Under the pieces are notes generated by a model. It saw only the letters and a program-made list of their open reading frames with translations. It did not search any database and had not been told where the DNA came from. Source: an uncultured Klebsiella sp. (GTDB lineage: Bacteria > Chloroflexota > Chloroflexia > Chloroflexales > Roseiflexaceae). From it: 64,000 bases of DNA. The position numbers and the translations under genes were made by a program. Location: contig CAYZZI010000013.1 in assembly GCA_964482795.1 (NCBI GenBank), positions 805-64,804 of the forward strand, given 5' to 3'. This document shows, piece by piece, positions 18,038-38,647 of the stretch; position 1 is the first letter of the stretch, and every line of letters starts with the position of its first letter.

Positions 18038-18096
18038 CTCCCCCCCTCCTACACCCAATCCAGTTGCCCATACACCAACACCATGTGAGGTCATCA

Positions 18097-18453
18097 GTGG
18101 TACGGATTATTCATGTGCTGTGGCTTACGCTGTGTTTGCGTTGTCCAGCCTGTCAACGTGGGCACATGTTCCGCAGTTTGTTTCGCATGAATGTGCGTTG
18201 CCCAGTATGCGGAGTCATTTTCGAACGCGATCACGGTGAAATCACCGGCGGAATGGCCATTAACACCGTAATGGTTCTGACTATTGCCATTGCAGGTGCC
18301 GTACTTTCCGTCGTCACGACATATCCCACGTGGCTCATTATTGGTGCCACGGCACTCATCATGACGATTGTGGGCATATTGTTCTATCGGCATGCACGTG
18401 CGATGTGGATTGGGATCGTGTATCTCACTGGTTCCATGTTTGAAGATATTTAG
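18097..18453 (+). CDS. DUF983-family small membrane protein with zinc-ribbon
   Basis: CPACQRGHMF...RCPVCGVIFERDHGE followed by two TM helices. The GTG at 18097 lies 6 nt after GAGG. The track ORF starts at TTG 18064. Confidence 0.6.
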   Translation: MVRIIHVLWLTLCLRCPACQRGHMFRSLFRMNVRCPVCGVIFERDHGEITGGMAINTVMVLTIAIAGAVLSVVTTYPTWLIIGATALIMTIVGILFYRHARAMWIGIVYLTGSMFEDI

Positions 18454-18461
18454 GACGCATC

Positions 18462-18938
18462 ATGCCATCATCATTTATGGATCGTCTCTTTGGGTTTGCC
18501 GCACACTTATTGTTTGAAAGACCCGGCCGCACGCTTGACTACGCCGCACATATCACCGATCTACGCGAGAGTGGTGACACGCTTGTGACACGATTCCGGA
18601 CTGCGCGCGACGATCAACACAACCGCACTCTGCTACGCCATATCATCGGGATTGAGCATTGGGCACAAGCGCGATTGCGTGAATTACTCGGCGCAGCGCC
18701 ATTCCGTGAGGAATACGACAAATATCAACCATCAGCCCAACTTACTGTCTCAGAATTAGCGCAAGTGTTGCAACAAACCCGACAGCAGAGTTGTGCCATC
18801 ACACAGCAGCTCGCTGATGCCCATGTCGACTTACAACAGCGCGTTACACACAACCAGTTTGGCCCATTGTCAGTCAGTGGGTGGTTGGTCTATATCCGTT
18901 CTCATGGCATGCTAGAGAGCAAAAAACTGCACAAATAA
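18462..18938 (+). CDS. DinB-like four-helix-bundle protein
   Basis: 158 aa with a His-containing helix pattern (LLRHIIGIEHWAQARL ... YIRSHGMLE), as in the DinB/YfiT family. Weak call. Confidence 0.4.
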   Translation: MPSSFMDRLFGFAAHLLFERPGRTLDYAAHITDLRESGDTLVTRFRTARDDQHNRTLLRHIIGIEHWAQARLRELLGAAPFREEYDKYQPSAQLTVSELAQVLQQTRQQSCAITQQLADAHVDLQQRVTHNQFGPLSVSGWLVYIRSHGMLESKKLHK

Positions 18939-19131: not shown

Positions 19132-20664
19132 GTGGGGGATGTACTTTTACCAGTCCTCATGTTGCTCATCGGCGGTTCAATTGGCTTTGGAGTAGCGCTA
19201 TTCATATATAGAACGAGTACGCAAAACCAAATCAGTCGGCTAGAGGCTGAGTGGCAACTTAAAGTAGAGGCAATCAGGACTGAGCACAAAGAATTGCGCA
19301 TCCAGGCGTCAGATGAGGCGTTGCGGATTCGCAGTGAGGCAGAGGTCCAAATTCGTGAGGCACGTCAGACAATTCGTCAGCAGGAAGAGCGTCTCAATCG
19401 CAAAGAAGAGGTGCTTGATCGCAAAGTTGACGGTGTTGAGCGCCGTGAACGGCAAATTCAACAGCGTGAACGGGCCGTTGAGCAACACGCACTTGAGGCC
19501 GAGCAATTCAAGCAACAGCAGCGCCAAGAGCTCGAGCGTATTTCTGGGTTGAGTGAGGAGCAAGCTCGCGAGATCATCTTACAGCGTGTCGAAGTTGAGG
19601 CACGTGATGAGTCGGCACGGCGCATTCGCGAGATTGAGCGTGTCACCCAAGATGAAGCTGACAAGACGGCGCGCAAGATTATCAGCATGGCAATTCAACG
19701 CTGTGCCTCTGATTATGTGGCCGAAGTCACGGTATCAACGGTGCCATTGCCGTCTGAAGAGATCAAGGGACGCATTATTGGTCGTGAGGGGCGCAACATT
19801 CGCGCATTCGAGCAGATTACTGGTGTTGACATCATCGTCGACGATACACCAGATGCCGTGACGTTGTCATGTCACGATCCGGTACGCCGTGAGGTTGCAC
19901 GTCTTTCATTGGGCAAGTTGCTCAAGGATGGACGTATCCACCCGACGCGTATCGAAGAAGTCGTGGCCAAGACGCAACAAGAGCTCGATGTGGTCATGCG
20001 TGAAGAGGGCGAGCGCGTTGCCTATGAGGCGAACGTACAGGGGTTACACCCGGACCTCATCAAACTGCTTGGGCGCCTCAAGTTCCGTACCAGTTACGGG
20101 CAGAACGTGTTACAACACTCACTCGAGTGTGCCTTGTTGGCAGCCCACATGGCAGCCGAGTTGGGGGCAAATATCACAATTGCGAAGACAGCGGCGTTGT
20201 TGCACGACATCGGCAAAGCTGTTGACCACGAGGTTCAGGGGCCACACGCCGTTATTGGCGCAGATATAGCAAAGCGGTTGGGTCGGTCACCGGCCATTGT
20301 GCACGCGATTGCCGCGCACCACAATGACGAAGAACCACAGACCGTTGAGGCATTCTTGGTACAGGCGGTTGATGCGATATCGGGTGGTCGACCAGGTGCA
20401 CGGCGTGAGACGCTTGATTTGTACATCAAACGATTAGAAGCCCTCGAAGGTGTGGCAACATCGTTTGAAGGGGTGCAGCGAGCGTTTGCAGTGCAAGCAG
20501 GGCGTGAAGTACGAATTATGGTCATTCCTGAGGCAATCGACGATTTAGGGAGCATTCACCTTGCCCGTGATGTCGCCAAAAAAATCGAAGAGAGTTTGCA
20601 GTACCCAGGCCAAATCAAGGTTACCGTGATTCGTGAGACACGCACAACAGAGTATGCACGGTAG
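19132..20664 (+). CDS. rny: Ribonuclease Y
   Basis: The GTG at 19132 follows GGAGG. There is an N-terminal TM helix, a long Glu/Arg/Gln coiled coil, a KH motif [19 protein letters not shown], and an HD domain [12 protein letters not shown]...AHH. Confidence 0.9.
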
Positions 20665-20784
20665 CACGCTTGGTGCGCCGGGCTCGTTAATTCAATACAC
20701 ATGGACGACGACGCATCTCGAACATCACCTTTTGGTCGTCTGTGTCACAGACCAAACACACATTGAAGTGAAGGGGTGTGTACT

Positions 20785-21111
20785 ATGGATTCACAGTATA
20801 CCAGTGATGTCCTGAGTGGCGGGGTAACAAATGATACGTCTACGCCCAAAGTCGAAATCTTGAAGGTCTCGACCCGGTCACGACCGAGTGCAGTGGCAGG
20901 AGCAATTGCCGGTGTCATTCGTGATCAGCGCAGTGCCGAGATTCAGACGATTGGGGCAGGTGCGACAAGCCAAGCCGTCAAGGCGATAGCGATTGCACAT
21001 AATTATCTTGCCGCAGAGCAAATTGAAATTGTGTGTGTACCTGCATTCATGGATGTTGTCATCGAAAACGAAGAACGGACGGCAATTCGCCTACTCGTCA
21101 CACGACGATAA
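20785..21111 (+). CDS. spoVS: SpoVS family protein with about 20-aa N-terminal extension
   Basis: EILKVSTRSRPSAVAGAIAGVIRDQRSAEIQTIGAGATSQAVKAIAIAHNYLA...RTAIRLLV. Confidence 0.85.
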   Translation: MDSQYTSDVLSGGVTNDTSTPKVEILKVSTRSRPSAVAGAIAGVIRDQRSAEIQTIGAGATSQAVKAIAIAHNYLAAEQIEIVCVPAFMDVVIENEERTAIRLLVTRR

Positions 21112-21129
21112 TGTGGATAGCACCGGAAG

Positions 21130-21177
21130 AGCACGCGCACGTCGGCAATAGTTGCCGGCGTGCGCGTGGTTCTTTGT
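21130..21177 (+). terminator. Terminator hairpin after spoVS
   Basis: The stem pairs 17 of 19 positions (one of them G-U, plus one G-G mismatch): AGCACGCGCACGTCGGCAA-tag-TTGCCGGCGTGCGCGTGGT, followed by TCTTTGT. Confidence 0.65.
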
Positions 21178-21213
21178 GCACACCCCGCATACATAAGGCT
21201 ATCTAATACGGTG

Positions 21214-21219
21214 TATAAT
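21214..21219 (+). promoter_or_regulatory. Perfect TATAAT box upstream of hydrogenase-like operon
   Basis: ggtgTATAATc lies 38 nt upstream of the GTG start at 21257. The -35 element is poor. Confidence 0.4.
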
Positions 21220-21256
21220 CACTGAGAAGCCAGTTTGTCAATGGGAGCATTGTGGC

Positions 21257-22330
21257 GTGAGTTATTCCCTGACACTTGGACCCTTTCACCCTGGGTGGCG
21301 CGGTCCACAACGCTACATCTTAGAACTTGACGGAGAGACCGTCACTGCGGTCGATTTGCATAGTGGCATGACCGAACGTGGTTGTGCCGATCGCATGCAA
21401 CGCCTATCTCTCGTCCAAAGCCTTCAATTCGTCCCGCGCATCTGTGGGAGTTGTAGTCATGCGCACATGCTAGCGTACTGCCGTGCCATTGAGCAGCTCA
21501 CCGCATTGACTGTGCCGATTCGTGCGCAGTATATTCGTATGATTGTCGCTGAACTTGAACGGATTGTCATGCACCTCGCAGGAGCTACCAACGTTTGTGC
21601 CATGCTCGGTGCGGATAACTACCATCATGCGCTCCACACACTCCATGTCGCCGCACACACGTTGTTGCGCGATTTCATCGGTCGTCCAAGTAATGACAAC
21701 ATCATCATGCCAGGCGGACTAGCGTTTGAGCCATCCAAGAGCGCATTTGTATCGCTCCAATCAGGTATCAACCAACTCCTTCAATCGCTCTATCGCACTA
21801 TTGATCATGTGATTGATGATCGGCGCCTACTGGCACGTACCGTGAATGTCGGCGTGTTGAGTCATCAGGCGGCAAGTCAACTTGAAGTAGGTGGGGTTAT
21901 CGGTCGCGCATCCGGGGTGAGCACGGATTTGCGTTTTGTTGCACCATACGAAGCATATGAACGTCTCGATGCCAACATGGTTGTCCAAGAGAGTGGCGAC
22001 GTATATGCCCGACTCATGCTGATGTTGCTTGAAGCGCATATGAGTGCAAAAATGGTTGAGCAGGCACAACGATTACTCAAATCCGGGCCCAGTGAAGGGT
22101 CATTACCGCTCCTTACACCAGGGGGTGCACAATCAAGTGTTGAGGGGCCGCGTGGCACAATCACCTACACACTGCGAAGCGATGGTGTCCGCATCACTGA
22201 ATGTGCCATACAGGTTCAACGTCAATTAGATCGCTTATTGACGCGTACGTTGTTGCTCAATGCACAACTTGACGACGTCGTGCCGATTATTGCCTCAACA
22301 GATACCTGTATCGCCTGTGCCGAAGGTTAA
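21257..22330 (+). CDS. NuoD / group-4 [NiFe]-hydrogenase large-subunit-like protein (EchE/MbhL-sized, 357 aa)
   Basis: The GTG start follows GGGAG. LGPFHPGWRGPQRYILELDGETVTAVDLHSG matches the NuoD/large-subunit N-terminus. RICGSCSHAH (C63, C66) and C-terminal DTCIACAEG match the L1 RxCGxCxxxH and L2 DPCxxCxxR metal-ligand motifs. Confidence 0.75.
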   Translation: MSYSLTLGPFHPGWRGPQRYILELDGETVTAVDLHSGMTERGCADRMQRLSLVQSLQFVPRICGSCSHAHMLAYCRAIEQLTALTVPIRAQYIRMIVAELERIVMHLAGATNVCAMLGADNYHHALHTLHVAAHTLLRDFIGRPSNDNIIMPGGLAFEPSKSAFVSLQSGINQLLQSLYRTIDHVIDDRRLLARTVNVGVLSHQAASQLEVGGVIGRASGVSTDLRFVAPYEAYERLDANMVVQESGDVYARLMLMLLEAHMSAKMVEQAQRLLKSGPSEGSLPLLTPGGAQSSVEGPRGTITYTLRSDGVRITECAIQVQRQLDRLLTRTLLLNAQLDDVVPIIASTDTCIACAEG

Positions 22331-22344
22331 GCAAGGGATTTTTT

Positions 22345-24102
22345 ATGTTATTTGTGGCACTTCTACTTCCATTATTTGCGGCCTTTACTGCATGGGCACT
22401 TGATCGTGTGGTGCCGACACGACACATCGGATATTTGGCCATCAGCGCATTGTTTGTGAGTGCCGTACTGATTATCATCGCCAATCCAATTATCGGCTTG
22501 CCCATTCAACTGCTGAATATTGAGTGGATCAAAATTGAAACCTACGTGGTACTACTGACGCTCCGGCTTGATTTATTCACCTGGGCGTTGTCAATTATGG
22601 TGCTCTTCATTGCCGTAGCCGGCATGATTGGCTTGATTTATTCACTGCCCTACCAACTGCGAAATTACGGCAGTCTTTTGGCGTTGATTCTCGTGCATGT
22701 ATCAATCATCTTGTTTGGGGTTATCGCACAAGAATCGGTATTGCGCATATTTATGTGGGGTATTGCCGCAATCATCGGTGGCATTTTGATGCGGGTGAGT
22801 GGTGCGCTCCCCGGTAGTAATGCGCCACTTGTCAGTATTGTGGGGGGGTTAAGCGGCGCTATTATGTTGATGGTCGCCGTGTTATGGCGCAATTATTTGC
22901 CGGTCGGCGCGCTACCGGGCGCACTGGTGATGGCATGGAGTTTTGCGGCGTTGCTCGGGATGGGGCTCGTGCCGTTTCATAGTTATGTAGCCGGTCTCAG
23001 CAGTGCACCAGCGATTCTGACGCTCTTCTTGGTTCCGCTAGGCATTCCACTACTTGGTGCGCTCAGCTTCGTTGAGATGATGGCCACACAGGGGCCACTT
23101 GTGAGTGATACATGGCGCAACATACTCATGGTACTGGCGATTATCAGTGCGGTTGGGACAGCGGTGGGCGCGGTGAGTGCAACCCGGCTGCGGTCGCTGT
23201 TAGGGTGGCATGCGAGCAATCAATATTCACTGATTATTTTGGCAGCAGTCAGCGATACGCAAGTCATGGTGTTGGGCGTGCCGATTTTGTTGTTGAGTAG
23301 CATGTTAACGACCAGTGTTATCGCTTTGGCTGTTGGTTTCATCGAGTCAAGCAGTAACAGCGACGAACTGACGCAACTGCGTCCACGCCTGCCGATTGGC
23401 GTAGCTGGTGTGATGATTTTGGTAGCGGTGGCCGCATCAATTGGCATCCCAGGTACCGTCGGTTTTGTGGCGCGCTGGTGGATGGCCGAGATTCTCCTCG
23501 TCCGTGCCCCATGGACCATTATCGCCATGTTGGTAAGTGGGTCATTACTTGGCCTGGCGTGGTCCGTGGCCTTGGCTAGTATTTGGCGGCGCATGCCACG
23601 GAGTATGACCGCCACCGGCATGCTCAAATCTGCGATTCCTATATGGGGCACCTGGATTGGGCCAATCGCATTCGGGGGCATCCTATTGCTATTTGGCATC
23701 TTCCCACAATATGTGTGGTCAGCGTGGCTAGTGCCACTGCAAGGACGGTTGAGTGGTGATGCAGCGTTAATTGTGCCGAGTATGCCGTCGCTGTTTCAAC
23801 AGCTTGGATTAGTCGTCATGGCGTTGGCAATTCTCGTTATTCCGATGATTGCGGGGCGCCTCCAACAAAAAGCTAGTGTCGGCGCCGATCAAGGTGCAGT
23901 GACCATTCCACCACAAGCCACCGCAGAAAGCCTCGGTGTGTTTATGAACATGGTGCAGGCCAACTGGTTATTAAACAGTCTATGGGGATTTTTGATTCGC
24001 TTTGGGAATGCGTTGCAGTGGATCTTTCGTCTCGGTGAGGATCGCTACTACGTGGCCGGGGTGGTTCTCGGGTTTATTTTGGTGGTATTGCTGCTTATCT
24101 AA
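22345..24102 (+). CDS. Antiporter-like membrane subunit (NuoL/NuoM/Mrp type), divergent
   Basis: 585 aa and polytopic. LVPFHSYVAGLSSAP is close to PFHxWLPxA. LRSLLGWHASNQYS is close to KRLLAYSSxxQ. GIPGTVGFVARWW is close to GxPPxxGFxxK. Confidence 0.6.
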   Translation: MLFVALLLPLFAAFTAWALDRVVPTRHIGYLAISALFVSAVLIIIANPIIGLPIQLLNIEWIKIETYVVLLTLRLDLFTWALSIMVLFIAVAGMIGLIYSLPYQLRNYGSLLALILVHVSIILFGVIAQESVLRIFMWGIAAIIGGILMRVSGALPGSNAPLVSIVGGLSGAIMLMVAVLWRNYLPVGALPGALVMAWSFAALLGMGLVPFHSYVAGLSSAPAILTLFLVPLGIPLLGALSFVEMMATQGPLVSDTWRNILMVLAIISAVGTAVGAVSATRLRSLLGWHASNQYSLIILAAVSDTQVMVLGVPILLLSSMLTTSVIALAVGFIESSSNSDELTQLRPRLPIGVAGVMILVAVAASIGIPGTVGFVARWWMAEILLVRAPWTIIAMLVSGSLLGLAWSVALASIWRRMPRSMTATGMLKSAIPIWGTWIGPIAFGGILLLFGIFPQYVWSAWLVPLQGRLSGDAALIVPSMPSLFQQLGLVVMALAILVIPMIAGRLQQKASVGADQGAVTIPPQATAESLGVFMNMVQANWLLNSLWGFLIRFGNALQWIFRLGEDRYYVAGVVLGFILVVLLLI

Positions 24103-24113
24103 GAGGTCTGTGT

Positions 24114-24836
24114 ATGGGTGAATTTTTGGGTGTCTACTGGCCATTAATTGGGATTTCGGTGTCAGCGGCAATCATTTTGATGGCACAGCAACGGCGCACG
24201 ACCCTCATCAGCCTACTCTTCAACTACTTGTTTGTGGCGGCTTTTTTGTCACAACAACAATTCATCAAACCAGATCTTGATTTGTTCGGCATCATGGTAA
24301 GCACCACGGTACTGGTCAAGATTATCGCCGGGTTATCGGCTGTGACAATTTTGGCGATTACGGCGCTGACCTTTTCACGCGATTACGAGGCAAGCGCGCT
24401 TGATGAATTTTCGTTGGCGGAGTTGCGTCGCGCAGCGCGTCAGGCGCGCCGACTCGAAATTGTCTCACCACGGCGCTTTGCGGATGTTGTGGTGCCGATG
24501 TGGGCGATGGTGCTCGTAGCCATTGCAAGTTTTATTTTGCCACGACTCTATCCGATCGGCAGTGAAGAGGTTGATTTTGCGTGGTACTGGTTGACATTGA
24601 CTGGATTCTTTACTATTGTAACAGCGAGTGATGTACTCAAACTCGGGCTCGGGTTATTGTTATGTGTCAGTAGTATTGACTTACTCTATACGGCAATTGC
24701 CAGCACCGTGCAAGTATTTCCATTAGCGTTGTTAGGGTTAACCACAATTGTGCTGTCGCTCGCAGTGTCGTATTTGAGCGGTCTGATGTTTGGGCGACTC
24801 AAGACACTCGAATTAAATGAATTGTATAAACGCTGA
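24114..24836 (+). CDS. Hypothetical membrane protein, possibly NuoJ-like N-half plus NuoK/MrpC-like C-half
   Basis: 240 aa with about 6 TM segments and a charged central loop (ELRRAARQARRLE). The C-terminal LLLCVSSIDLLYTAIAS resembles the NuoK xIELMLNA helix. The family call is tentative. Confidence 0.35.
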   Translation: MGEFLGVYWPLIGISVSAAIILMAQQRRTTLISLLFNYLFVAAFLSQQQFIKPDLDLFGIMVSTTVLVKIIAGLSAVTILAITALTFSRDYEASALDEFSLAELRRAARQARRLEIVSPRRFADVVVPMWAMVLVAIASFILPRLYPIGSEEVDFAWYWLTLTGFFTIVTASDVLKLGLGLLLCVSSIDLLYTAIASTVQVFPLALLGLTTIVLSLAVSYLSGLMFGRLKTLELNELYKR

Positions 24837-26296
24837 TGCTCTACCTACTGACAATTTCGTTTCCAATTGCCATGGCAGCGGGATTATTCTTGCTCCGGGC
24901 ACGACAAATACCTGCAATTACCGGTGCCATCTTGACCGTATTGGTGCAGATGCTCTTGGTTATTCAGTTGCCGGTTGATGCACCCGTTCGACTGCTTGGG
25001 TTAACACTTGCGATTGATCCGCTTGGTCGGCTCATCATGTTGACTATTTTGGGCATTGCATTATTTGCCTACACGGTGAACTTTTTTATTGCACACGGTG
25101 AGCACTTTATCCCGATTAGTTTGCTCTTACTTGGCTTCACCCATACGACCATCATCTTGATGCAAGAGCCATTTGTGGCGACGTTGTTGTTAGTCAGCAG
25201 TGGCTTTTTGGCCATCTTAGCGATTGTAGACCTGCCAATTGGCAGTAGTGTCTTGGTTGAACGATCGCCGCTGATTACTGCCTTGCACTATTTGGTTCTC
25301 GTCTTGTTATCTGGGTTTGCCATGTATATGGCGTATGTCCTGCTCACCATCTACTGGCCGACCGAACAATCAAGTCAATCCTCGCCAGCACAGTTGATTA
25401 TGTCGCTCATCATCGTAGGGTTTGGCATGCGTCTTGCCATCTTCCCTTTTCATTCATGGCTTGTCGAACTTGCTGAATACACGACGCCGATGGTCACCGT
25501 CATCGTCATCACGGCACTGAACAGCACAAGTCTGCTCTTCTTGATTAGTACGTTCCAATTCTTCCCGATTATCGTCGCCGAAAACGCTCGTGGCATGCAG
25601 GTCTTGATGTTTTTGGGGGCGATCACCATGATCGTGGCAGCGTTGTTTGGGCTTGCCACAGCGCATTTACGCCGCACGCCAAGCTATCTCGTGGTTGCAA
25701 ACAGTGGATTCATGGTGTTTGGGGTGGCCAGTGCCACGAGTAACGGGTTGGCAGGTTCTATTCTTGACCTGTTTAACCACATGATTGCTGTACTGGTCAT
25801 TTATGTGTCAATTGCGCTCCTTGAGCGCCCTGATGGACGTCCGGTGGTCACACTTCGTAGCGATTTGTTATGGCGTTGGCCGTTAGCAGGGAGTGGATTC
25901 ATTGGTGGATGCTTGCTCTTGCTGGGTGCTCCACCGTTTAGTTCGTTCACCAGTAAACTGCTCGTCTACAACGCCGCCGCCGAGTCGGGAGCACATTTTG
26001 TGGTGCTCCTGGGTATCGGGAGTTTGTTGATGCTTGCCGCTGTTGCGCGGTTGCTCTACGAACGCTTGCTTGGTGCGGCCGAAGAGTTGCCGACCGAGCA
26101 AATGCCCATTTTGCTGGCAACCCAAGAGATGTCACGACAAAGCGATCGAAAGCTCATTGGAGAGCCAGTGGGACTCAGCATTGTGATCTTTTTGTTGTTG
26201 GGCGTCAGTGCCGTCATCGGTCTCTACCCACAACTAATCTTGGTCACCATTGAAGATGTCATTCGTGGTTTAACGTTTGTACGCGTCACATCGTAG
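24836..26296 (+). CDS. Antiporter-like membrane subunit (NuoN/NuoM/MrpD type)
   Basis: The start overlaps the upstream stop (TGATG). FPFHSWLVELAEYTTPMVTVIV, LRRTPSYLVVANSGFMVFG and LLGAPPFSSFTSKLLVY match the Proton_antipo_M signature regions. Confidence 0.7.
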   Translation: MLYLLTISFPIAMAAGLFLLRARQIPAITGAILTVLVQMLLVIQLPVDAPVRLLGLTLAIDPLGRLIMLTILGIALFAYTVNFFIAHGEHFIPISLLLLGFTHTTIILMQEPFVATLLLVSSGFLAILAIVDLPIGSSVLVERSPLITALHYLVLVLLSGFAMYMAYVLLTIYWPTEQSSQSSPAQLIMSLIIVGFGMRLAIFPFHSWLVELAEYTTPMVTVIVITALNSTSLLFLISTFQFFPIIVAENARGMQVLMFLGAITMIVAALFGLATAHLRRTPSYLVVANSGFMVFGVASATSNGLAGSILDLFNHMIAVLVIYVSIALLERPDGRPVVTLRSDLLWRWPLAGSGFIGGCLLLLGAPPFSSFTSKLLVYNAAAESGAHFVVLLGIGSLLMLAAVARLLYERLLGAAEELPTEQMPILLATQEMSRQSDRKLIGEPVGLSIVIFLLLGVSAVIGLYPQLILVTIEDVIRGLTFVRVTS

Positions 26297-26313
26297 ATGC
26301 AGAGGAGACACCC

Positions 26314-26679
26314 ATGACCGTGCGCGTCTTTCATGCAAATAGTGGTTCATGCGGCGGGTGTGACAACGAAATCAGGCTTGCACTCTATCGACAGCCGCGC
26401 ATTGAGATGGTCATCACGCCGGCTGATGCCGATGTCTGGTTAATCACGGGTATTCTCAACACATTTATCCGCAATTATCTGACACAGGTGTTGTTGAGCA
26501 CGCCGCAACGTCCATACATCATTGCCACCGGACTCTGTGCCGTCAACGGGCAACCATTTGGACGTGGTGGTCTTGCTGATGCGCCTGAAATCCCGGTGAG
26601 TTTGCGCTTACTCGGTTGTCCGGTACGCCCGGATGACATCATCAGCGCAATTTATAATGCGCGTAGTATTCGGAACTGA
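26314..26679 (+). CDS. NuoB / group-4 hydrogenase small-subunit-like [4Fe-4S] protein, minimal (121 aa)
   Basis: NSGSCGGCDNEI (compare GSCNGCDIE of HycG/EchC/MbhJ), DADVWLITG, IIATGLCAVNGQPF and LGCPVRPDDI. All four cluster Cys positions are present. Confidence 0.75.
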   Translation: MTVRVFHANSGSCGGCDNEIRLALYRQPRIEMVITPADADVWLITGILNTFIRNYLTQVLLSTPQRPYIIATGLCAVNGQPFGRGGLADAPEIPVSLRLLGCPVRPDDIISAIYNARSIRN

Positions 26680-26762
26680 TGACGTCATTGTCTATCATTT
26701 TGCGTATAATAATGAGCAGATAACACGCAATGAGTCGTTGTACTGGCAACCAGCAATAAGGA

Positions 26763-27581
26763 GTGACGGTGGATCTTATTTTTGCATTACTCGTATATCC
26801 TGGACTCATTCCCGCATTGCTCCTGACGTTGCTCTTCAACTTCTTAGTATCACAGCGCCGTTTGGTGCTCCCACCTGATTTTGCGAAGGCAATCCTCAGC
26901 ACCGATGGGCTAGGTGCTATTGTGAGCATCGTCCTCGCAGTGAGCTCCATGGTGTTCATGCCTTGGCCATTCAATGGTGCATATAGCAACGTTGCTGGTC
27001 CACTCTTGATGTGGGCTGCGCTTGAGGCTGCATTTTTGATACCGTCGCTTGTGGCCCAAACGTCGTCATCGCCGATGGTCGTACGCGGCGCTGCCCGTTC
27101 GCTCCAGATTGGGCTGGCTGGTCGTATTGTAATTTGGTGTGCGTTTGGTGTGCTGTACTGGGCCAATCAAACCTGGAGTTGGAGTGCCACACCCGCCATT
27201 GTCCTAGCGTGGGTCTCCGGGTTACTCGCACTTCCGGCAGCCATCGGCGTCGGCATGTTCCGCAACGACACAGCACTCACCGGCGTCATCACCACGGGTC
27301 TCAATATTTCGACGGTGGCCCTAATGCAAATTGCAGCTGACGTACGCGCCACCGCACTTGTGGTGATGATTACGTCGAGTCTCATCCCCTTTGAAATCGG
27401 CAGTGATTTTGTGCGCCTTATCGGCATTCTGCTGAGTACCGTGCTCTCGATGGTAATTATCCGGGTAATGATTCGCAACCAGCCATTTGTCACTCTGGCA
27501 TCGGCGTTACGATGGTGTTGGTGGCGAGCGTTGCCACCGTCATTAGTTGCCCTGGTCTATCTACAGTTTTTTGTGTCGTAA
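26763..27581 (+). CDS. NuoH/EchB/HycD-like membrane subunit, strongly divergent
   Basis: SSSPMVVRGAARSLQIGLAG is close to SxYxxxGxxRxxAQxxSYE. RVMIRNQPFVTLASALRWCWWRALPPSL is close to RxxxPRxRxDQxxxxxWxxxLP. The start is GTG 26763, or GTG 26769, which is better spaced from AAGGAG at 26757-26762. Confidence 0.55.
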   Translation: MTVDLIFALLVYPGLIPALLLTLLFNFLVSQRRLVLPPDFAKAILSTDGLGAIVSIVLAVSSMVFMPWPFNGAYSNVAGPLLMWAALEAAFLIPSLVAQTSSSPMVVRGAARSLQIGLAGRIVIWCAFGVLYWANQTWSWSATPAIVLAWVSGLLALPAAIGVGMFRNDTALTGVITTGLNISTVALMQIAADVRATALVVMITSSLIPFEIGSDFVRLIGILLSTVLSMVIIRVMIRNQPFVTLASALRWCWWRALPPSLVALVYLQFFVS

Positions 27582-27599
27582 CGTAAAGCGGTAGGTGAT

Positions 27600-28565
27600 A
27601 TGCATCTGGTTCGCATCAAACAGCTCAGCGTTGCCGATACACCGATTCGTTCGGTATCGTTGCATATTCCTGCGCATCGGTGTTACGGCATTATCGGCGC
27701 GAGTGGGAGTGGCAAAAGTACGTTACTCAACATCATCGCTGGGCTCGACGGCCTTGCATCACGCCATGTGTCGATTGATGGACTTTCTGCAAATCAGATG
27801 ACCCGGCAGATTGGCATGGTTTCACCACGCATTCAATTTGCTCCCGATATACGCGTTGAAGAGCTCTTACTGCAGCATGCCAGCCTGTATCACTCGAGTA
27901 ACGACGACATCCAACAGCACTTTCAACTGGTTGTACGGTTGTGTGCGCTTAGCACGATTGTGCTGCAACCGATTCGTGCGCTTTCAGTATTCAATCAACG
28001 TCGTGTGGCGTTTGCGGTGGCACTCATCCAACAGCCAACACTCTTGCTCGTTGACGAGCCTACGATTGGGTTAACGGCAAGCGAGCAAAAAGTCATGATT
28101 GACTTAATCGAGGGCTTGCGCGATCGCAACATGACGATTGTGATTGCCACCCGCGGGGATGCACCACTTGATCCACTCTTTGATATGATTGGGGTGCTTG
28201 CCGATGGTCGCATCGTAGCCGAATTGGACCACAGTCACATTCGAGCGCTACCGCGCACCATTGTGATTCGCACCGATGGCATTCCAACCGCTGCGTACGA
28301 ACATATTGTGGCGCTGGATAACGGCATTGTGGTGACCCGACGCAATATTGTCCTGACCGGCGATGGGGTGCGGGCGCTGGCACAGATTTTGCAAGTCCTA
28401 CTCCACTACAACGTGCATATTTTCGCAATAGAACCGCTCAATCACCCGCTTGCGGATCTGGTTAATCAGGCCAAACAACCACAGGTCTTGGCTCATCGAT
28501 ACCCCGTACGCATCATCACATCACCGATTGTCGAGCCAGAGTCACCGCAGGAGAGCAACGCATGA
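27600..28565 (+). CDS. ABC transporter ATP-binding protein with degenerate signature and H-loop
   Basis: Walker A GASGSGKST and Walker B LLLVDEP are present. The signature is LSVFNQ instead of LSGGQ, the D-loop is GLT, and the H-loop position reads ATRGD. There is an extra C-terminal domain of about 100 aa. Confidence 0.8.
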   Translation: MHLVRIKQLSVADTPIRSVSLHIPAHRCYGIIGASGSGKSTLLNIIAGLDGLASRHVSIDGLSANQMTRQIGMVSPRIQFAPDIRVEELLLQHASLYHSSNDDIQQHFQLVVRLCALSTIVLQPIRALSVFNQRRVAFAVALIQQPTLLLVDEPTIGLTASEQKVMIDLIEGLRDRNMTIVIATRGDAPLDPLFDMIGVLADGRIVAELDHSHIRALPRTIVIRTDGIPTAAYEHIVALDNGIVVTRRNIVLTGDGVRALAQILQVLLHYNVHIFAIEPLNHPLADLVNQAKQPQVLAHRYPVRIITSPIVEPESPQESNA

Positions 28566-29293
28566 CGCCGCTATTTCGCATTATCCTGATGGAGCATATA
28601 CGCAGTCAGCGCATTCTGATTGAACTCATCATCGGCGCAGTCATGGCATTTTTTGTGTTGCGGAACTTGAGCGATGCACAGGCCGTTCATGCGTCACTCG
28701 TGCTCTACGCCTTTTTGGTATCGCTCTACACCACATCAGTCATCGCCGATAGTAGCGAACAACCGCATGCCATTCAACGCATTCTCGCATTGCCCACACG
28801 CCACCTACTCTTGCAGGCCATAGGTGTGAGTGTGACCACCATCACTATTGCCTCCTACGTGGTACTCGTGGGCGTTGGCATGCTGCTCAATCCACTAGCG
28901 ATGCCGGCACTACTGACCCTGCTTTTGGGGCTCCCAAGTCTCTTGCTGTTAATTGTGACAGCAATCGTACTGATGCTCCTGATGACGCCACTCGTTGCCT
29001 CAACCACACAACGCATCATCATCCTTGCCATCATCACCGTTCCCATGGCGTGGAATATCGTCGTATCGACCGTAAGCCTGTCAATGCCATTCGTTGACGG
29101 CACCATCGTCGCTGCCATAACAACAGTGTGGGGTATACTGTTGTGGCCGAGTTTTGCGGTCTATAATCATGCAATTCACCCTGACTACAATATCCTCACG
29201 ATACTTTTGCATCTCATCCATGTATGCCTTCTTGTGGGCATGGCGCGCGTTGGCAGGCACTGGTTTGCGCACAAATCACTGACCATCGCCTAA
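28562..29293 (+). CDS. Six-TM membrane protein, ABC-2-type permease-like partner
   Basis: The start overlaps the ATPase stop (ATGA). 243 aa with about 6 hydrophobic segments. No specific motif recognised. Confidence 0.5.
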   Translation: MTPLFRIILMEHIRSQRILIELIIGAVMAFFVLRNLSDAQAVHASLVLYAFLVSLYTTSVIADSSEQPHAIQRILALPTRHLLLQAIGVSVTTITIASYVVLVGVGMLLNPLAMPALLTLLLGLPSLLLLIVTAIVLMLLMTPLVASTTQRIIILAIITVPMAWNIVVSTVSLSMPFVDGTIVAAITTVWGILLWPSFAVYNHAIHPDYNILTILLHLIHVCLLVGMARVGRHWFAHKSLTIA

Positions 29294-29302
29294 TACACAC
29301 AG

Positions 29303-29342
29303 CATGAGCCCGCGACCTGTGTATGCAGGTCGCGGGCTCATG
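29303..29342. terminator. Perfect 17-bp hairpin between convergent genes (end of hydrogenase-like/ABC operon and of ctaA)
   Basis: CATGAGCCCGCGACCTG-tgtatg-CAGGTCGCGGGCTCATG. No flanking U-tract. Confidence 0.65.
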
Positions 29343-29355
29343 TGCATACCGTCAA

Positions 29356-30294
29356 CTATGCTGGTGATCCTTGTGCGGGTGGTGCAGTTTTGGCAAATCC
29401 AAGCCCAATTAACACCACAAAGGCAATCCAGATAATGTCAGACAACAACAGATGGAAAATCTGCAGCGGAATCGGGGCCAGCAGCATCATGTTGACAGTC
29501 CCAAGTACGAGCTGCGCCACGTAGGCGCCAATCACGATATTCGCAGTCCGTGCGATCTGGGGTGTGGGGAAGGTGTTGCGAAACAGCTGTGCAATGATGA
29601 CCATCAAAAATCCCGTTCCGACAGCGATGGCCGGGTGTGCAACACGCAAGCGCAGTAAGAGATTGGCTGTCGGATCAAGGTCTTTGTAGAGTCCATCCAC
29701 AAAACTCGTATCCGGAAATAATGTATCACCGAGTGCGGCAATGCCACCACTCGCACCGAGTAACATCATCATGAGCGCCCCAATCACCGTCCACGCCACA
29801 AGACGCTTGTGTGTATGGAAGACGGGTGCTGCGACACCACGCGCCCACAACCCCGTCAAGGTGATGGCGGCGAGGAGTAATAGGGTGTTTACGAGATGCG
29901 CTGCCATGGAGAAGGCACGCGTCAGCGATGCATTGTGTGCCACCAGCTCAAAGATGACAAGCATTGCACCAATTAACGCTTCGATAATCACAAAAATTAA
30001 CGTGGCTACTGCCCCTTTGCGCACAATGTCACCCTTGGGGTACAGCACGAAGGCTCTGTAGGTCATCCAGCCAATCATGAACAACAACAATCCACTCGTA
30101 AGGCGATGCGATAGTTCAATGATGGTCTCTACCTCAGGGGCACGTGGGACGACTTCGCCATTACACAACGGCCAATGGTCACCACATCCTGCGCCAGAAC
30201 CGGTCGCACGGACCACGGCTCCCCACAAAATAACGACTATCGTATACAACAGAACGATCCAAATATAGCGTTCATATCGCTTTCGTGCATCCAT
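29356..30294 (-). CDS. ctaA: Heme A synthase (COX15/CtaA family)
   Basis: YTIVVILWGAVVRATGSGAGCGDHWPLCNGEVVP...ELSHRL, plus a second half with a conserved His (VAHPAI). Confidence 0.85.
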   Translation of the reverse strand: MDARKRYERYIWIVLLYTIVVILWGAVVRATGSGAGCGDHWPLCNGEVVPRAPEVETIIELSHRLTSGLLLFMIGWMTYRAFVLYPKGDIVRKGAVATLIFVIIEALIGAMLVIFELVAHNASLTRAFSMAAHLVNTLLLLAAITLTGLWARGVAAPVFHTHKRLVAWTVIGALMMMLLGASGGIAALGDTLFPDTSFVDGLYKDLDPTANLLLRLRVAHPAIAVGTGFLMVIIAQLFRNTFPTPQIARTANIVIGAYVAQLVLGTVNMMLLAPIPLQIFHLLLSDIIWIAFVVLIGLGFAKTAPPAQGSPA

Positions 30295-35371: not shown

Positions 35372-38300
35372 ATGGCGCAACGCCCACCTCGTGAACAACT
35401 CAACGGCATGTCCATTTCGGACACGTCGATACGGCAGCCGGTCTTCATCACCATGCTCATGCTATTGGCGGTAACATTCGGTGTATTGGCGTTCAATCGA
35501 ATGCCAGTCAATCTTTTGCCCGAAATCAACCTGCCAATCGTGGCGGTCACTGTCGCCTACCCGGGTGCTGGGCCGTCAAGTGTCGTTGACCAAGTCACCG
35601 AGCCGATTGAGCAGGCCGTAAATACCATCAACGGTATCAAGCACATCACTTCGAACTCGAGTGAGGGTTTGTCATTGCTCATTCTCGAGTTCAATGAAGG
35701 TACCGATATCAATCAGGCAGAGCAGGATGTCCGACAAAAGATCAACGGCATTCGCAACGCATTGCCGCGCGATATTCGCGAACCCATCTACCAGCGTTTT
35801 GACCCCAACCAAGCGCCAATTATGTCAATCGCAATTGCACCAAAAACAGCCATTGATCCCCTTGTATTGCGTGACATTATCGAAGACCAAATTACCCCGC
35901 GCCTGCAGCGTGCTGCTGGTGTCGGCTCAATTACCGTACTCGGTGGACAAACGCGTCAAATCAATGTGTGGATGCAGCTTGACAAGCTCCAAGCGTATGG
36001 TTTGATACCCGCACAACTCACACGTTCTCTGCAATCAGCAAATGCAAATCTGGGCCTCGGCTCAATCAACGCAGGCACCCAAGACATCAACTTACGTGCA
36101 CCGAGCATGTTGACGAGTATTGATGATATTGCCAACATACAAATTACCGGGACGCCATACAAAATATCCGATGTGGCAACGGTCGAAGAGGGTGTAGCTG
36201 ATGCGACTAGTTACACACGACTTGACGGTGCCAATGCCATCATTCTTGATGTACGCAAGCAGTCGGGCACAAATACCGTGCAGGTAGCCGATGCCGTCAA
36301 GGTCGAGCTCGAAAATGTCTTTGCGAACCGCACTGACATGAGTTATATCGTACCGCGTGACCAATCGGTATCGGTGCGTGAATCCGTGATTAGCTCACTC
36401 GAGGAGTTAATCTTTGCGACCATCGCGGCCCTCATCGTGGTCTTTCTCTTCTTCCGCGATATTCGCAACACGCTCATCACCATGGCAGGTTTGCCCATCA
36501 TCTTGATTGCGACATTCATTGCGATGTCACTCTTCGGCTTGACCATCAACTTGATTACCTTGTTGGCGCTCTCGTTGTGTGTCGGTCTTGTGATTGACGA
36601 TGCCATCGTAGTCCGTGAGAACATTTTCAGGCATACCCTACGTGGCAAATCAGCTCGCGTAGCATCGAGTGTTGGCACCGCCGAAGTATCGCTCTCTGTC
36701 ATTGCCATGACGTTGACGATTGTCGCCGTGTTCGTACCGGTGACATTCACCACCGGCACCGTAGGGATCATCTTTAAGTCGTTCGGCATCACGGTGGCAG
36801 TGGCCATGTTGCTCTCATTAATCGAGGCATTCACCTTCGCTCCTATGCTTTCGGCGAACGCCTTCCGTACCAAAAATAAACAGGCCAAAGATGATCACAA
36901 TCATCACTCTGCGCATGCGGTGGCCATTGACGAAAACGACCCGAATGCATCATTGCTCCACGAAGCGAACGAATCACCGGGCAAACTCGGCGACTTTTAT
37001 GGCAATCTGCTCAAGCGTAGTCTGCGCACACGCCTCAACCGTGTCATGATTATGGTGGTGGCCGTTGTGGTACTTGGGCTGAGTGTCCTCGTAGCCGGAC
37101 AACTCAAGTTCACCTTCTTCCCTGCTGAAGATCCACACGAGTATGTGATGGGCTTCGAAATGCCACCAGGCACAACCCTAGCTGAGACCGATCGTGTGGC
37201 CCGTGAGGTAGAACAGGTGCTCCTCAACGAAGAGACCACGGTATCCGTGATTAGTACGGTGGGTTTCACCGGCAATCCTGAGCGTGCCGAATTTAGTGTC
37301 AAGCTCAAAGGCAAGACACCCACCCAGGCTGCGCAAGATGCAGTGCGTCCAAAGTTGAGCTTTGCTCCAAATCTAGCCTTCGCGGTGCCGAGCTTCCAAG
37401 GGTCGAGCACCGGCGTGACGGGTCGCACACTGCAGCTCAGTTTGCAGACCAATCGTGCGCCAGAAGAGATTACTCCGCTCGTTGACCAAATCATCCAGAC
37501 CATGCGTCAGACGCCAGGCATGGTTGACGTAGCCACCAACTACGTGCCGGGCAAGCCGGAGTTACGCCTGTTGGCAGATCCGAACCGTATCGGCGATCTA
37601 GGTCTTACCAATGAAGAAATTGCCTCTTCAGTGCGCGCACTCATCAATGGTGAACGGGCCACCGTGTTGCGCCGTGACGGCATTGACACTGACATCGTAG
37701 TACGGCTGGCACCAGCTGATCGAAGCGATGCTGCCGCACTCGGGAACATCATCATTCCTACTCGGAGCGGTTCAGTTGCACTGAGTTCACTCGGTCAGTT
37801 CGAGTTGACGAGTAGTGCAGTCACTATTCGCCGTTATGACCGTCTCAATCAGGTGTTGATCGGGGCAAATCTCCAGGATCTCAACATCGGTGATGCCCAG
37901 ACCAAAGTCCGTGGCATCATGCAATCGCTCAACGTCCCCAGCGATGTGGTCTGGAGCTTCACCGGGCAGTCACAACAACAGACCGAGGGCTTCTCGTCAT
38001 TGTTGATTGCCATGGCGCTCTCCGTGCTTTTCGTATACATGGTGCTGGCATCACAGTTCGGTTCATTCACGCAACCGCTGGTCATCATGCTTGCCATGCC
38101 GTTTAGTTTCATCGGCGCGTTTCTCGGCCTTATTCTGACCAACACGGATCTCGACATTACCGGCATGATTGGTCTCATCATGCTCCTCGGTCTTGTCACC
38201 AAAAACTCCATCTTGCTGGTCGACTTCACCAATCGTCTGCGCCAAGCAGGCCTCGAAAAGCACGAAGCACTGCGCGTCGCAGGTGCGGTGCGCCTCCGCC

Positions 38301-38593
38301 CAATTTTGATGACGACATTTGCAATTATTGCAGGTGCCTTGCCAGTTGCCATGGGTATCCACATCTTCGGCACCGGTCAGGGTGGCGAGTTCCGTCGTGG
38401 TCTAGCAACCGTCCTCATCGGCGGTCTGACGACATCGATGCTACTCACGTTGTTCGTCGTCCCTGCCGCATATAGCTTGCTTGACTCACTCACAAGTCGT
38501 CTACGCCGGTCAGAGCCGACTGATGACGAAGTCGTGACACCCATCTCCGCCGGCGGATTACCCAGCCGTGCCCCAGGACGTAATCAAGAATAG
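35372..38593 (+). CDS. RND-superfamily efflux permease (AcrB/HAE1-like)
   Basis: 1073 aa. The ATG follows AGGAG. SIRQPVFITMLMLLAVTFGVLAF, LPEINLPIVAVTVAYPGA and two 6-TM blocks with large loops are present. Confidence 0.9.
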   Translation: MAQRPPREQLNGMSISDTSIRQPVFITMLMLLAVTFGVLAFNRMPVNLLPEINLPIVAVTVAYPGAGPSSVVDQVTEPIEQAVNTINGIKHITSNSSEGLSLLILEFNEGTDINQAEQDVRQKINGIRNALPRDIREPIYQRFDPNQAPIMSIAIAPKTAIDPLVLRDIIEDQITPRLQRAAGVGSITVLGGQTRQINVWMQLDKLQAYGLIPAQLTRSLQSANANLGLGSINAGTQDINLRAPSMLTSIDDIANIQITGTPYKISDVATVEEGVADATSYTRLDGANAIILDVRKQSGTNTVQVADAVKVELENVFANRTDMSYIVPRDQSVSVRESVISSLEELIFATIAALIVVFLFFRDIRNTLITMAGLPIILIATFIAMSLFGLTINLITLLALSLCVGLVIDDAIVVRENIFRHTLRGKSARVASSVGTAEVSLSVIAMTLTIVAVFVPVTFTTGTVGIIFKSFGITVAVAMLLSLIEAFTFAPMLSANAFRTKNKQAKDDHNHHSAHAVAIDENDPNASLLHEANESPGKLGDFYGNLLKRSLRTRLNRVMIMVVAVVVLGLSVLVAGQLKFTFFPAEDPHEYVMGFEMPPGTTLAETDRVAREVEQVLLNEETTVSVISTVGFTGNPERAEFSVKLKGKTPTQAAQDAVRPKLSFAPNLAFAVPSFQGSSTGVTGRTLQLSLQTNRAPEEITPLVDQIIQTMRQTPGMVDVATNYVPGKPELRLLADPNRIGDLGLTNEEIASSVRALINGERATVLRRDGIDTDIVVRLAPADRSDAAALGNIIIPTRSGSVALSSLGQFELTSSAVTIRRYDRLNQVLIGANLQDLNIGDAQTKVRGIMQSLNVPSDVVWSFTGQSQQQTEGFSSLLIAMALSVLFVYMVLASQFGSFTQPLVIMLAMPFSFIGAFLGLILTNTDLDITGMIGLIMLLGLVTKNSILLVDFTNRLRQAGLEKHEALRVAGAVRLRPILMTTFAIIAGALPVAMGIHIFGTGQGGEFRRGLATVLIGGLTTSMLLTLFVVPAAYSLLDSLTSRLRRSEPTDDEVVTPISAGGLPSRAPGRNQE

Positions 38594-38647
38594 TAGTCCC
38601 ATAACATGCCGGAGGGACGTGTACCCTCCGGCACACCAAAAGGAAGT

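Follow-up and report, generated by a model that had tools for sequence, protein, structure and literature searches.

An eight-gene Chloroflexales locus resembling a minimal Ehr-type complex-I/hydrogenase module with an attached ABC pair

Results

Organization of the locus

We analyzed a 64,000-nt stretch of contig CAYZZI010000013.1 (hereafter, the window), in which genes for a stripped-down complex resembling the group 4 [NiFe]-hydrogenases and respiratory complex I are directly followed by genes for an ATP-binding cassette (ABC) pair. Eight same-strand open reading frames (ORFs) run from 21257 to 29293 on the + strand. A first-pass annotation, made from the sequence alone, had placed them at these positions, and the seven junction lengths that it gave (14, 11, −1, 17, 83, 18, and −4 nt, in order) were exact. 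The eight genes form one co-oriented, tightly spaced unit composed of a six-subunit set and then an ATPase with its membrane partner. The first six encode a 357-aa NuoD-like [NiFe]-hydrogenase large subunit (21257–22330), a 585-aa NuoL/EhrA-like antiporter-type subunit (22345–24102), a 240-aa membrane protein whose C-terminal part is weakly NuoK/MrpC/HyfE-like (24114–24836), a 486-aa MrpD/NuoN/HyfF-like antiporter-type subunit (24836–26296), a 121-aa NuoB-like small subunit (26314–26679), and a 272-aa membrane subunit with a predicted NuoH/ND1/MbhM fold (26763–27581). They are followed by genes for a 321-aa ATPase of the ABC-2 exporter type (DrrA/GldA/NodI-like; 27600–28565) and a 243-aa polytopic membrane protein that is presumed to be the permease partner (28562–29293), all on the + strand. 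The 4-nt and 1-nt overlaps and the 11–18-nt gaps between these genes indicate translational coupling.

The boundaries were also as first described. Upstream, a terminator-like hairpin (21132–21168, + strand; a 17-bp stem, 12 of its pairs GC, closing a 3-nt loop, then GTTCTTTGTG) lies just 3′ of spoVS (20776–21111) and is followed by a TATAAT −10-like box, a putative promoter element read directly off the sequence (21214–21219, + strand), and by GGGAG about 9 nt 5′ of the GTG start codon of the large-subunit gene. The downstream boundary is a hairpin with a perfect 17-bp stem and a 6-nt loop (29303–29342), likewise read directly off the sequence and located between the permease gene and the convergent ctaA gene. 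A two-hexamer promoter scan did not call a full promoter at the TATAAT box, promoter and terminator scans within the operon gave hits at the level of shuffled sequence only, and an Rfam search over 20600–29600 detected neither riboswitches nor other RNAs.

The large and small subunits retain hydrogenase-type ligands

The large subunit matched PF00346 (3e-32) and PF00374 (1e-7) in Pfam, and its best solved relative was MbhL (6cfw_L, E = 3e-34), the match extending over the full length and covering both cysteine motifs. Its N-terminal motif, R61-I-C63-G-S-C66-S-H-A-H70, fits RxCGxCxxxH exactly; among the large subunits of the family, H70 is invariant and C63 and C66 are nearly so. The C-terminus reads D349-T-C351-I-A-C354-A-E-G-stop, with both cysteines invariant across the family. 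Relative to DPCxxCxx[H/R], it has Thr in place of Pro and Gly in place of the final His or Arg, and in the sister clades the last residue is R, H, Q, or C. The stop codon falls where hydrogenase large subunits are normally cleaved; because the protein already ends at that position, a maturation endopeptidase should not be needed. All four Ni-Fe cysteines are kept in 67 of the 79 family large subunits (85%).

The small subunit matched PF01058 (2e-10), and its best solved relative, over the full length, was MbhJ (6cfw_J, E = 1e-14), including the FHxNSGSCxGCDxEI motif. Its cysteines C13, C16, C75, and C102 make up the ligand set for one [4Fe-4S] cluster, and these four residues are kept wherever the gene is present, except in two loci. 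With the Ni-Fe and [4Fe-4S] cysteine sets both complete (four residues each), the head formed by the two subunits is probably metal-loaded in this organism.

The membrane arm includes two antiporter-type subunits and a NuoH-fold protein

Both antiporter-type subunits were recognized by Pfam. The NuoL-like subunit matched PF00361 at 6e-10, above the gathering score, and hhalign aligned it with NuoL, NuoN, and HycC at 85–92% probability. The MrpD-like subunit matched PF00361 at 5e-19 as well as MrpD models in NCBIfam, and hhalign related it to NuoN, NuoM, and HycC at 99% probability; D132, R199, and K374 in transmembrane helices (TM) 5, 7, and 12, respectively, are conserved in this subunit.

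The NuoH-like protein had no match in Pfam or NCBIfam, and a profile search of PDB sequences returned only noise. The earlier assignment of this protein, which failed every hidden Markov model (HMM), was rescued by the fold: its AlphaFold2 model had a predicted local distance difference test (pLDDT) score of 85, and a Foldseek search with this model retrieved ND1, NuoH, HycD, and MbhM at E-values of 2e-5 to 4e-4, with a template modelling score of 0.72 to MbhM (6cfw_M). The NuoH-like call thus stands on the predicted fold.

The 240-aa protein, which had been proposed to be NuoJ- or NuoK-like, is the most conserved product of the cluster, with 55–82% identity between proteins whose accompanying large subunits are 36–63% identical; the large and MrpD-like subunits rank next in conservation, and the permease ranks last. 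Its family profile matched the MrpC-like subunit of MBS (6u8y_G, E = 0.0046) over residues 157–239, and PF00420 was weakly matched by eight of 28 orthologues, while no Pfam match was found for the protein of the window itself. The HyfE model NF008556 was matched by two of 50 remote homologues, and the E-values against Escherichia coli HyfE (0.31 and 0.0093) were not significant. These matches weakly suggest that the three C-terminal helices are NuoK/MrpC/HyfE-like; the earlier J/K-like call therefore stays below HMM thresholds and gains weak support for the C-terminal half only. The N-terminal half consists of three TM helices and a strictly conserved amphipathic helix, LDEFSLAELRRAAR, and neither family nor fold searches found relatives of it. 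The AlphaFold2 model of the protein was of moderate confidence (pLDDT 71), and a fold search with the whole chain gave no match. Comparison by hhalign with single NuoA, NuoJ, NuoK, and NuoH sequences of E. coli and the outgroup returned nothing for the 240-aa protein, the NuoH-like protein, or the permease. The 240-aa protein also belongs to a wider, unannotated family of 200–290-aa membrane proteins with 148 representatives at E ≤ 1e-3 (P0292–P0439), which share an LDEF..ELRRA amphipathic helix and a NuoK-like C-terminus and almost none of which has a Pfam match.

An ABC pair follows the six-subunit set

The ABC ATPase matched PF00005 at 7.5e-21, so that Pfam backed the original calls for this protein as well as for the large subunit, the small subunit, and both antiporter-like subunits. 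The best NCBIfam model was drrA for all 24 ATPase family members scanned, with E-values down to 4e-63. In the freshwater clade to which the window belongs, Walker A and Walker B are intact, the signature reads LSVFNQRR instead of SxGMxQR, and Arg replaces the H-loop His; both the signature and the H-loop are canonical in the sister clades.

The presumed permease had no match in Pfam, NCBIfam, or the PDB, and no ABC-2 permease model was matched by any of the 23 members scanned. Its gene, the least conserved of the cluster, overlaps the ATPase gene by 4 nt and follows it in every family locus where it could be traced.

In sister clades, a gene for an ArsR/SmtB-type helix-turn-helix protein with a Cys-rich helix (HPCCICNEIL) adjoins the cluster downstream. 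It is co-oriented with the cluster in 11 loci (L027, L028, L029, L033, L035, L039, L044, L045, L050, L073, and L081), as exemplified by L045, in which it lies just after the permease gene (18077–18562), and such genes were also seen in L087 (18858–19157, co-oriented) and L085 (18900–19214, opposite strand). The window has none. This neighbor is a hint that the cluster is under metal(loid) or redox control.

NuoC-, NuoI-, and Hyp-type partners are absent from the window and from related loci

Partner genes were sought in the window among all 631 six-frame ORFs using phmmer with the E. coli Nuo, Hyc, and Hyp proteins and the NuoC and NuoI proteins of the canonical outgroup as queries. Apart from one weak HypA-like match, only the D, B, and N genes of the cluster were recovered: the window contained no homologue of NuoC, NuoI, NuoEFG, HycB/F/I, or HypB–F, nor one of NuoA or NuoJ. 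The HypA-like match (38493–38669, − strand, E = 1e-3) lies opposite a + strand ORF (35372–38593) and is probably a spurious, zinc-ribbon-like hit. The absence of NuoC-, NuoI-, NuoEFG-, and hyp-type genes, which had been noted by inspection, was therefore upheld in the window. It extends to relatives: among about 170 related loci, no NuoC-like or NuoI-like gene was found within 10 kb and no hyp gene adjoined the cluster, so that the description of a group-4-hydrogenase/complex-I-like module that lacks NuoC and NuoI applies to these loci as well.

The eight-gene unit is conserved across Chloroflexales lineages

Relatives of the large subunit at 36–96% identity were found in genomes of Roseiflexaceae, Kouleothrix, Chloroflexaceae, Oscillochloris/Viridilinea, and Herpetosiphonaceae, and the genome scan detected the protein in no group outside these Chloroflexales lineages, evidently wrong taxon labels aside. 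Several metagenome-assembled genome records with a Roseiflexaceae-type locus are titled “uncultured Klebsiella sp.”, “Singulisphaera sp.”, or “Thermoflexus hugenholtzii” (L008, L015, L063, L012, and L019); these titles are probably taxon mislabels or the result of mis-binning.

Conservation of gene order was judged in 89 distinct genome and metagenome loci that were long enough for this purpose. The order D-L-x-N-(B)-H-ABC-permease, in which x is the 240-aa protein and the ATPase gene directly follows the NuoH-like gene, was observed in 86 of them, and the ABC pair stayed syntenic with the cluster even where large-subunit identity falls to 36%. Of the three exceptions to the ATPase position, two were decaying clusters of Herpetosiphonaceae. 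The copies in this family (L055:10001–15289, L057:5960–11245, and L058:13606–15429) look decayed in that two clusters stop after the N gene and the third has N split into two ORFs and a Cys-less B-like protein; their large subunits carry Asp for the second Cys. The flanking genes, RNase Y and SpoVS upstream and CtaA and TsaE downstream, are kept only in the freshwater clade of the window and are wholly different in the other lineages. An order that recurs in 86 of 89 loci makes the unit more than a chance arrangement, and the differing flanks indicate that the eight genes travel together. The proposed conservation and co-orientation of the unit, and the synteny of the ABC genes with it, were thus borne out.

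The family has a sharp boundary. Relatives with large-subunit identities of 32% or less carry canonical clusters with NuoC and NuoI, ordered MbhD-NuoK-3x antiporter-B-C-D-H-I or L-B-H-I-C-D; the nearest Ech-like relative, L092 (32% identity), has both NuoC-like and NuoI-like parts. A distant relative on a 2.36-Mb contig with 70% GC (L094, 7276–13220; 34% large-subunit identity) has the order D-L-x-N-B-H and no ABC pair, and its large subunit reads RVCGEHSQHH, the second Ni cysteine being lost. L094 has the appearance of an Ehr-like member of this lineage.

Discussion

Relation to Ehr and other complex-I-like enzymes

The layout of the six-subunit set resembles that of the Ehr (Ech-hydrogenase-related or energy-converting-hydrogenase-related) complexes. 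The Ehr cluster of Geobacter sulfurreducens has been annotated with only ehrA (NuoL-like), ehrB (NuoH-like), ehrC (HyfE-like), ehrD (HyfF-like), ehrL, and ehrS (PMC7894505, supplement), and that of Sulfobacillus has been described as six syntenic genes with homology to nuoH, nuoL, HyfE, and HyfB (PMC4378227). Ehr of G. sulfurreducens (GSU0739–0745), Sulfobacillus, and comammox Nitrospira shares with the Chloroflexales cluster the same inventory of NuoL-, NuoH-, HyfE-, and HyfF-like, large, and small subunits, although the 240-aa protein resembles HyfE only weakly, and neither includes an EchD/NuoC-like or EchF/NuoI-like subunit. The first-pass annotation had assumed that Ehr relatives carry a NuoI-like subunit, which is contradicted by the Ehr clusters of Geobacter (PMC7894505) and Sulfobacillus (PMC4378227). 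Since the Ehr inventory also lacks these two subunits, the stripped-down layout belongs to a named class, itself with no known partners, and is not in itself novel; the retention of cysteines, the ABC linkage, and the small-subunit losses set the Chloroflexales cluster apart. Ehr large subunits are defined by missing [NiFe] CxxC motifs (PMC10284858, PMC4378227), whereas the Chloroflexales large subunit has both CxxC pairs. The gene order also differs (D-L-x-N-B-H versus A-B-C-D-L-S in Geobacter), as does the presence of an ABC pair, which is not mentioned for Ehr in PMC7894505, PMC4378227, or PMC10284858. This relation to Ehr was judged by layout and published descriptions. Large subunits like this one might be absorbed by HydDB group 4g, a loose, polyphyletic catch-all (PMC13582414).

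The closest solved relatives, MbhL, MbhJ, and MbhM, belong to the Mrp-linked group 4d enzyme Mbh of Pyrococcus furiosus (6cfw). Mrp-type membrane subunits, including an MrpC/NuoK-like one, are a further likeness between the two systems. Mbh has 14 subunits, among them the NuoC-like MbhK and the NuoI-like MbhN, whose two [4Fe-4S] clusters take electrons from ferredoxin. Counterparts of MbhK and MbhN are absent from the Chloroflexales cluster, and ABC genes are absent from Mbh. Ech (group 4e) and Hyc/Hyf (E. coli hydrogenase-3/-4, group 4a) are likewise small membrane-bound enzymes with NuoL-, NuoH-, NuoB-, and NuoD-like subunits, and counterparts of HyfE and HyfF are seen in the Chloroflexales cluster; Ech, Hyc, and Hyf also contain NuoC-like (EchD, the N-terminal domain of HycE) and NuoI-like (EchF, HycF, HyfH) parts. 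Of the features of a group 4 [NiFe]-hydrogenase, the locus thus has the NuoD-type large subunit, RxCGxCxxxH, the four-Cys small subunit, the NuoH-fold anchor, and the antiporter-like subunits, and it lacks the NuoC/EchD/MbhK-like and NuoI/EchF/MbhN-like subunits. It differs from complex I in that NuoA, C, E, F, G, I, and J are missing from the window and Ni ligands are present in the large subunit, and from Mrp antiporters in that only MrpA/D-like and MrpC-like parts occur, with no other small membrane genes in the cluster. The ABC pair resembles the ABC-2 exporters DrrAB, NodIJ, and GldAFG in the clear family assignment of its ATPase and in having a polytopic partner of about 245 aa encoded with a 4-nt overlap, but this partner matches no ABC-2 permease model and the ATPase motifs are degenerate in the clade of the window.

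Our literature search found no paper on the Chloroflexales cluster and none that reports an ABC-2-type pair associated with a complex-I-like module. Roseiflexus hydrogenases are listed in a 2010 survey, but its trees are of HupL and HoxH, not of this large subunit.

Proposed function and points that weigh against it

We give a probability of about one half to the reading that the locus is a form of the six-subunit Ehr layout specific to Chloroflexales, predicted to carry out H+/H2 or other redox chemistry, with an ABC pair serving the same process. What is new here, on the evidence of the sequences, is an Ehr layout in which hydrogenase-type ligands are retained, the gene order differs, and an ABC pair is almost always attached. 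In the proposed mechanism, the head of large and small subunits would dock on the NuoH-fold protein and perform H+/H2 or other redox chemistry. As no NuoI-type relay subunit exists, a soluble low-potential carrier would pass electrons directly to the single [4Fe-4S] cluster. Conformational coupling via the NuoH-like protein and the NuoK/HyfE-like protein would link turnover to ion movement in the one well-conserved MrpD-like subunit. The ABC pair may take part in the same physiological process, such as export or ion extrusion.

Several observations weigh against this reading. In the membrane arm, the NuoL-like subunit seems to lack the canonical TM5 Glu and TM7 Lys, in a region where the alignment is uncertain, and the TM7 Lys of pumping subunits is replaced by Arg in the MrpD-like subunit. 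In the ABC pair, the signature of the ATPase is degenerate and the H-loop His is missing in the clade of the window. In the head, the large subunit ends in DTCIACAEG instead of DPCxxCxx[H/R]; one Cys is swapped for Asp, Ala, Ser, or Asn in 12 of the 79 large subunits, and the second Cys is missing from distant relatives with the same six-gene order (L094 and L093). Ehr itself is regarded as a group of non-hydrogenases of unknown function (PMC10284858, PMC4378227). Lastly, 33 of the 89 distinct loci have no small-subunit gene (L051, L056, L062, L065–L077, L084, L085, and L091, together with many metagenome loci: L106 and L140–L175). On a rough neighbor-joining tree, the gene was lost at least three times, once in a large Chloroflexaceae/Oscillochloris clade and in at least two further independent events, so that the conserved function cannot strictly need a cis-encoded [4Fe-4S] subunit. 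The large subunits of these loci keep all four cysteines (CPxC ... DPCxxC) and have a short C-terminal extension. We also considered that a small-subunit gene might be hidden elsewhere in these loci and rejected this idea, as tblastn at an E-value cutoff of 10 found none within 10 kb.

Alternative explanations

These observations bear on the main alternative, which we regard as possible, though less probable than the reading above, namely that no H2 chemistry takes place. In this case a conserved core, formed by the 240-aa protein and the MrpD-like subunit of the membrane arm, would act with the ABC pair in ion or solute transport, and the head would serve as a cap with a structural or a redox/metal-sensing role, in line with what is assumed for Ehr. 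Such a role would fit the repeated small-subunit losses and the Cys substitutions, both in the 12 large subunits of the family and in the distant six-gene relatives, and also the view of Ehr taken in the literature (PMC10284858, PMC4378227). The 240-aa protein and the MrpD-like subunit are among the best-conserved products, a NuoI-type electron relay was found nowhere in the window or the related loci, and an ArsR/SmtB-type sensor gene lies directly downstream in the 11 sister-clade loci, which would also suit a transport system with a sensing cap. Conversely, the large subunit is conserved as well as the MrpD-like subunit, and the four small-subunit cysteines are intact wherever that subunit is present, with the two exceptions given above. 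Furthermore, retention of all four Ni-Fe cysteines in 85% of the large subunits, including those of all Oscillochloris-type loci that have no small subunit, is hard to explain without a bound metal center. Redox chemistry in an Ehr-like frame remains our preferred reading.

It is unlikely that the locus encodes an ordinary group 4 hydrogenase whose NuoC-like, NuoI-like, and possibly other partners are encoded elsewhere and join in trans. The visible portion of this genome is 64 kb, and the loci that lack the small subunit would likewise need a trans-encoded one. Chloroflexales are expected to carry complex I genes, from which NuoC and NuoI might in principle be recruited, as might extra ferredoxins. 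However, none of the roughly 170 loci has such a gene within 10 kb, every canonical relative keeps these genes in the cluster, and Ehr of Geobacter and Sulfobacillus has been annotated with the same inventory devoid of both subunits. The synteny data make this explanation, as well as a lack of any functional link to the ABC pair, less likely.

A stronger role for the ABC pair is also improbable: its ATPase and membrane partner would be physical subunits of a hybrid machine, mechanically coupled to a minimal complex-I/hydrogenase-type arm. To our knowledge, no relative of the respiratory complexes has an ABC module built in, and no complex-I-like enzyme uses one. Were this arrangement real, ATP might assist or gate H2/redox chemistry, or the redox head might drive or regulate export. 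Least probable of all is that the ATPase and permease are functionally unrelated downstream neighbors. This would fit the distant six-gene relative L094, which has no such pair, the conservation of the pair, which is the lowest in the cluster, and the lack of precedent just mentioned, but the ATPase gene follows the NuoH-like gene in 86 of 89 loci while the other flanks vary, the spacing is tight (an 18-nt gap to the NuoH-like gene and the 4-nt ATPase–permease overlap), and two of the three exceptions are decaying clusters.

Significance of the family

Ehr-type complexes are discussed as a link between the group 4 hydrogenases and complex I, and we know of none that has been characterized so far. 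A minimal Ehr layout with full Ni-Fe and Fe-S ligands could show whether a head devoid of NuoC and NuoI does redox chemistry, and the same family could show how electrons enter such a head. Cultured hosts, for example Roseiflexus castenholzii, carry the cluster, which opens the question to experiment. Either the near-obligate ABC link or the loss of the small subunit with the large-subunit cysteines kept could point to a new function for this architecture.

Base composition

The operon had looked AT-rich by eye. Its GC content is indeed slightly lower than that of the window (0.516 versus 0.540), but this has no meaning in terms of foreign DNA: the immediate neighbor genes have GC contents of 0.51–0.53, and GC at third codon positions in the operon genes (0.49–0.62) equals that of the neighboring genes. 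Origin as a foreign island was rejected on the grounds of these third-position values and of flanks that are vertically conserved inside the clade. The AT skew of the operon is strongly negative, and this T bias and AT-richness are consistent with the T-rich codons of membrane proteins rather than with a foreign source.

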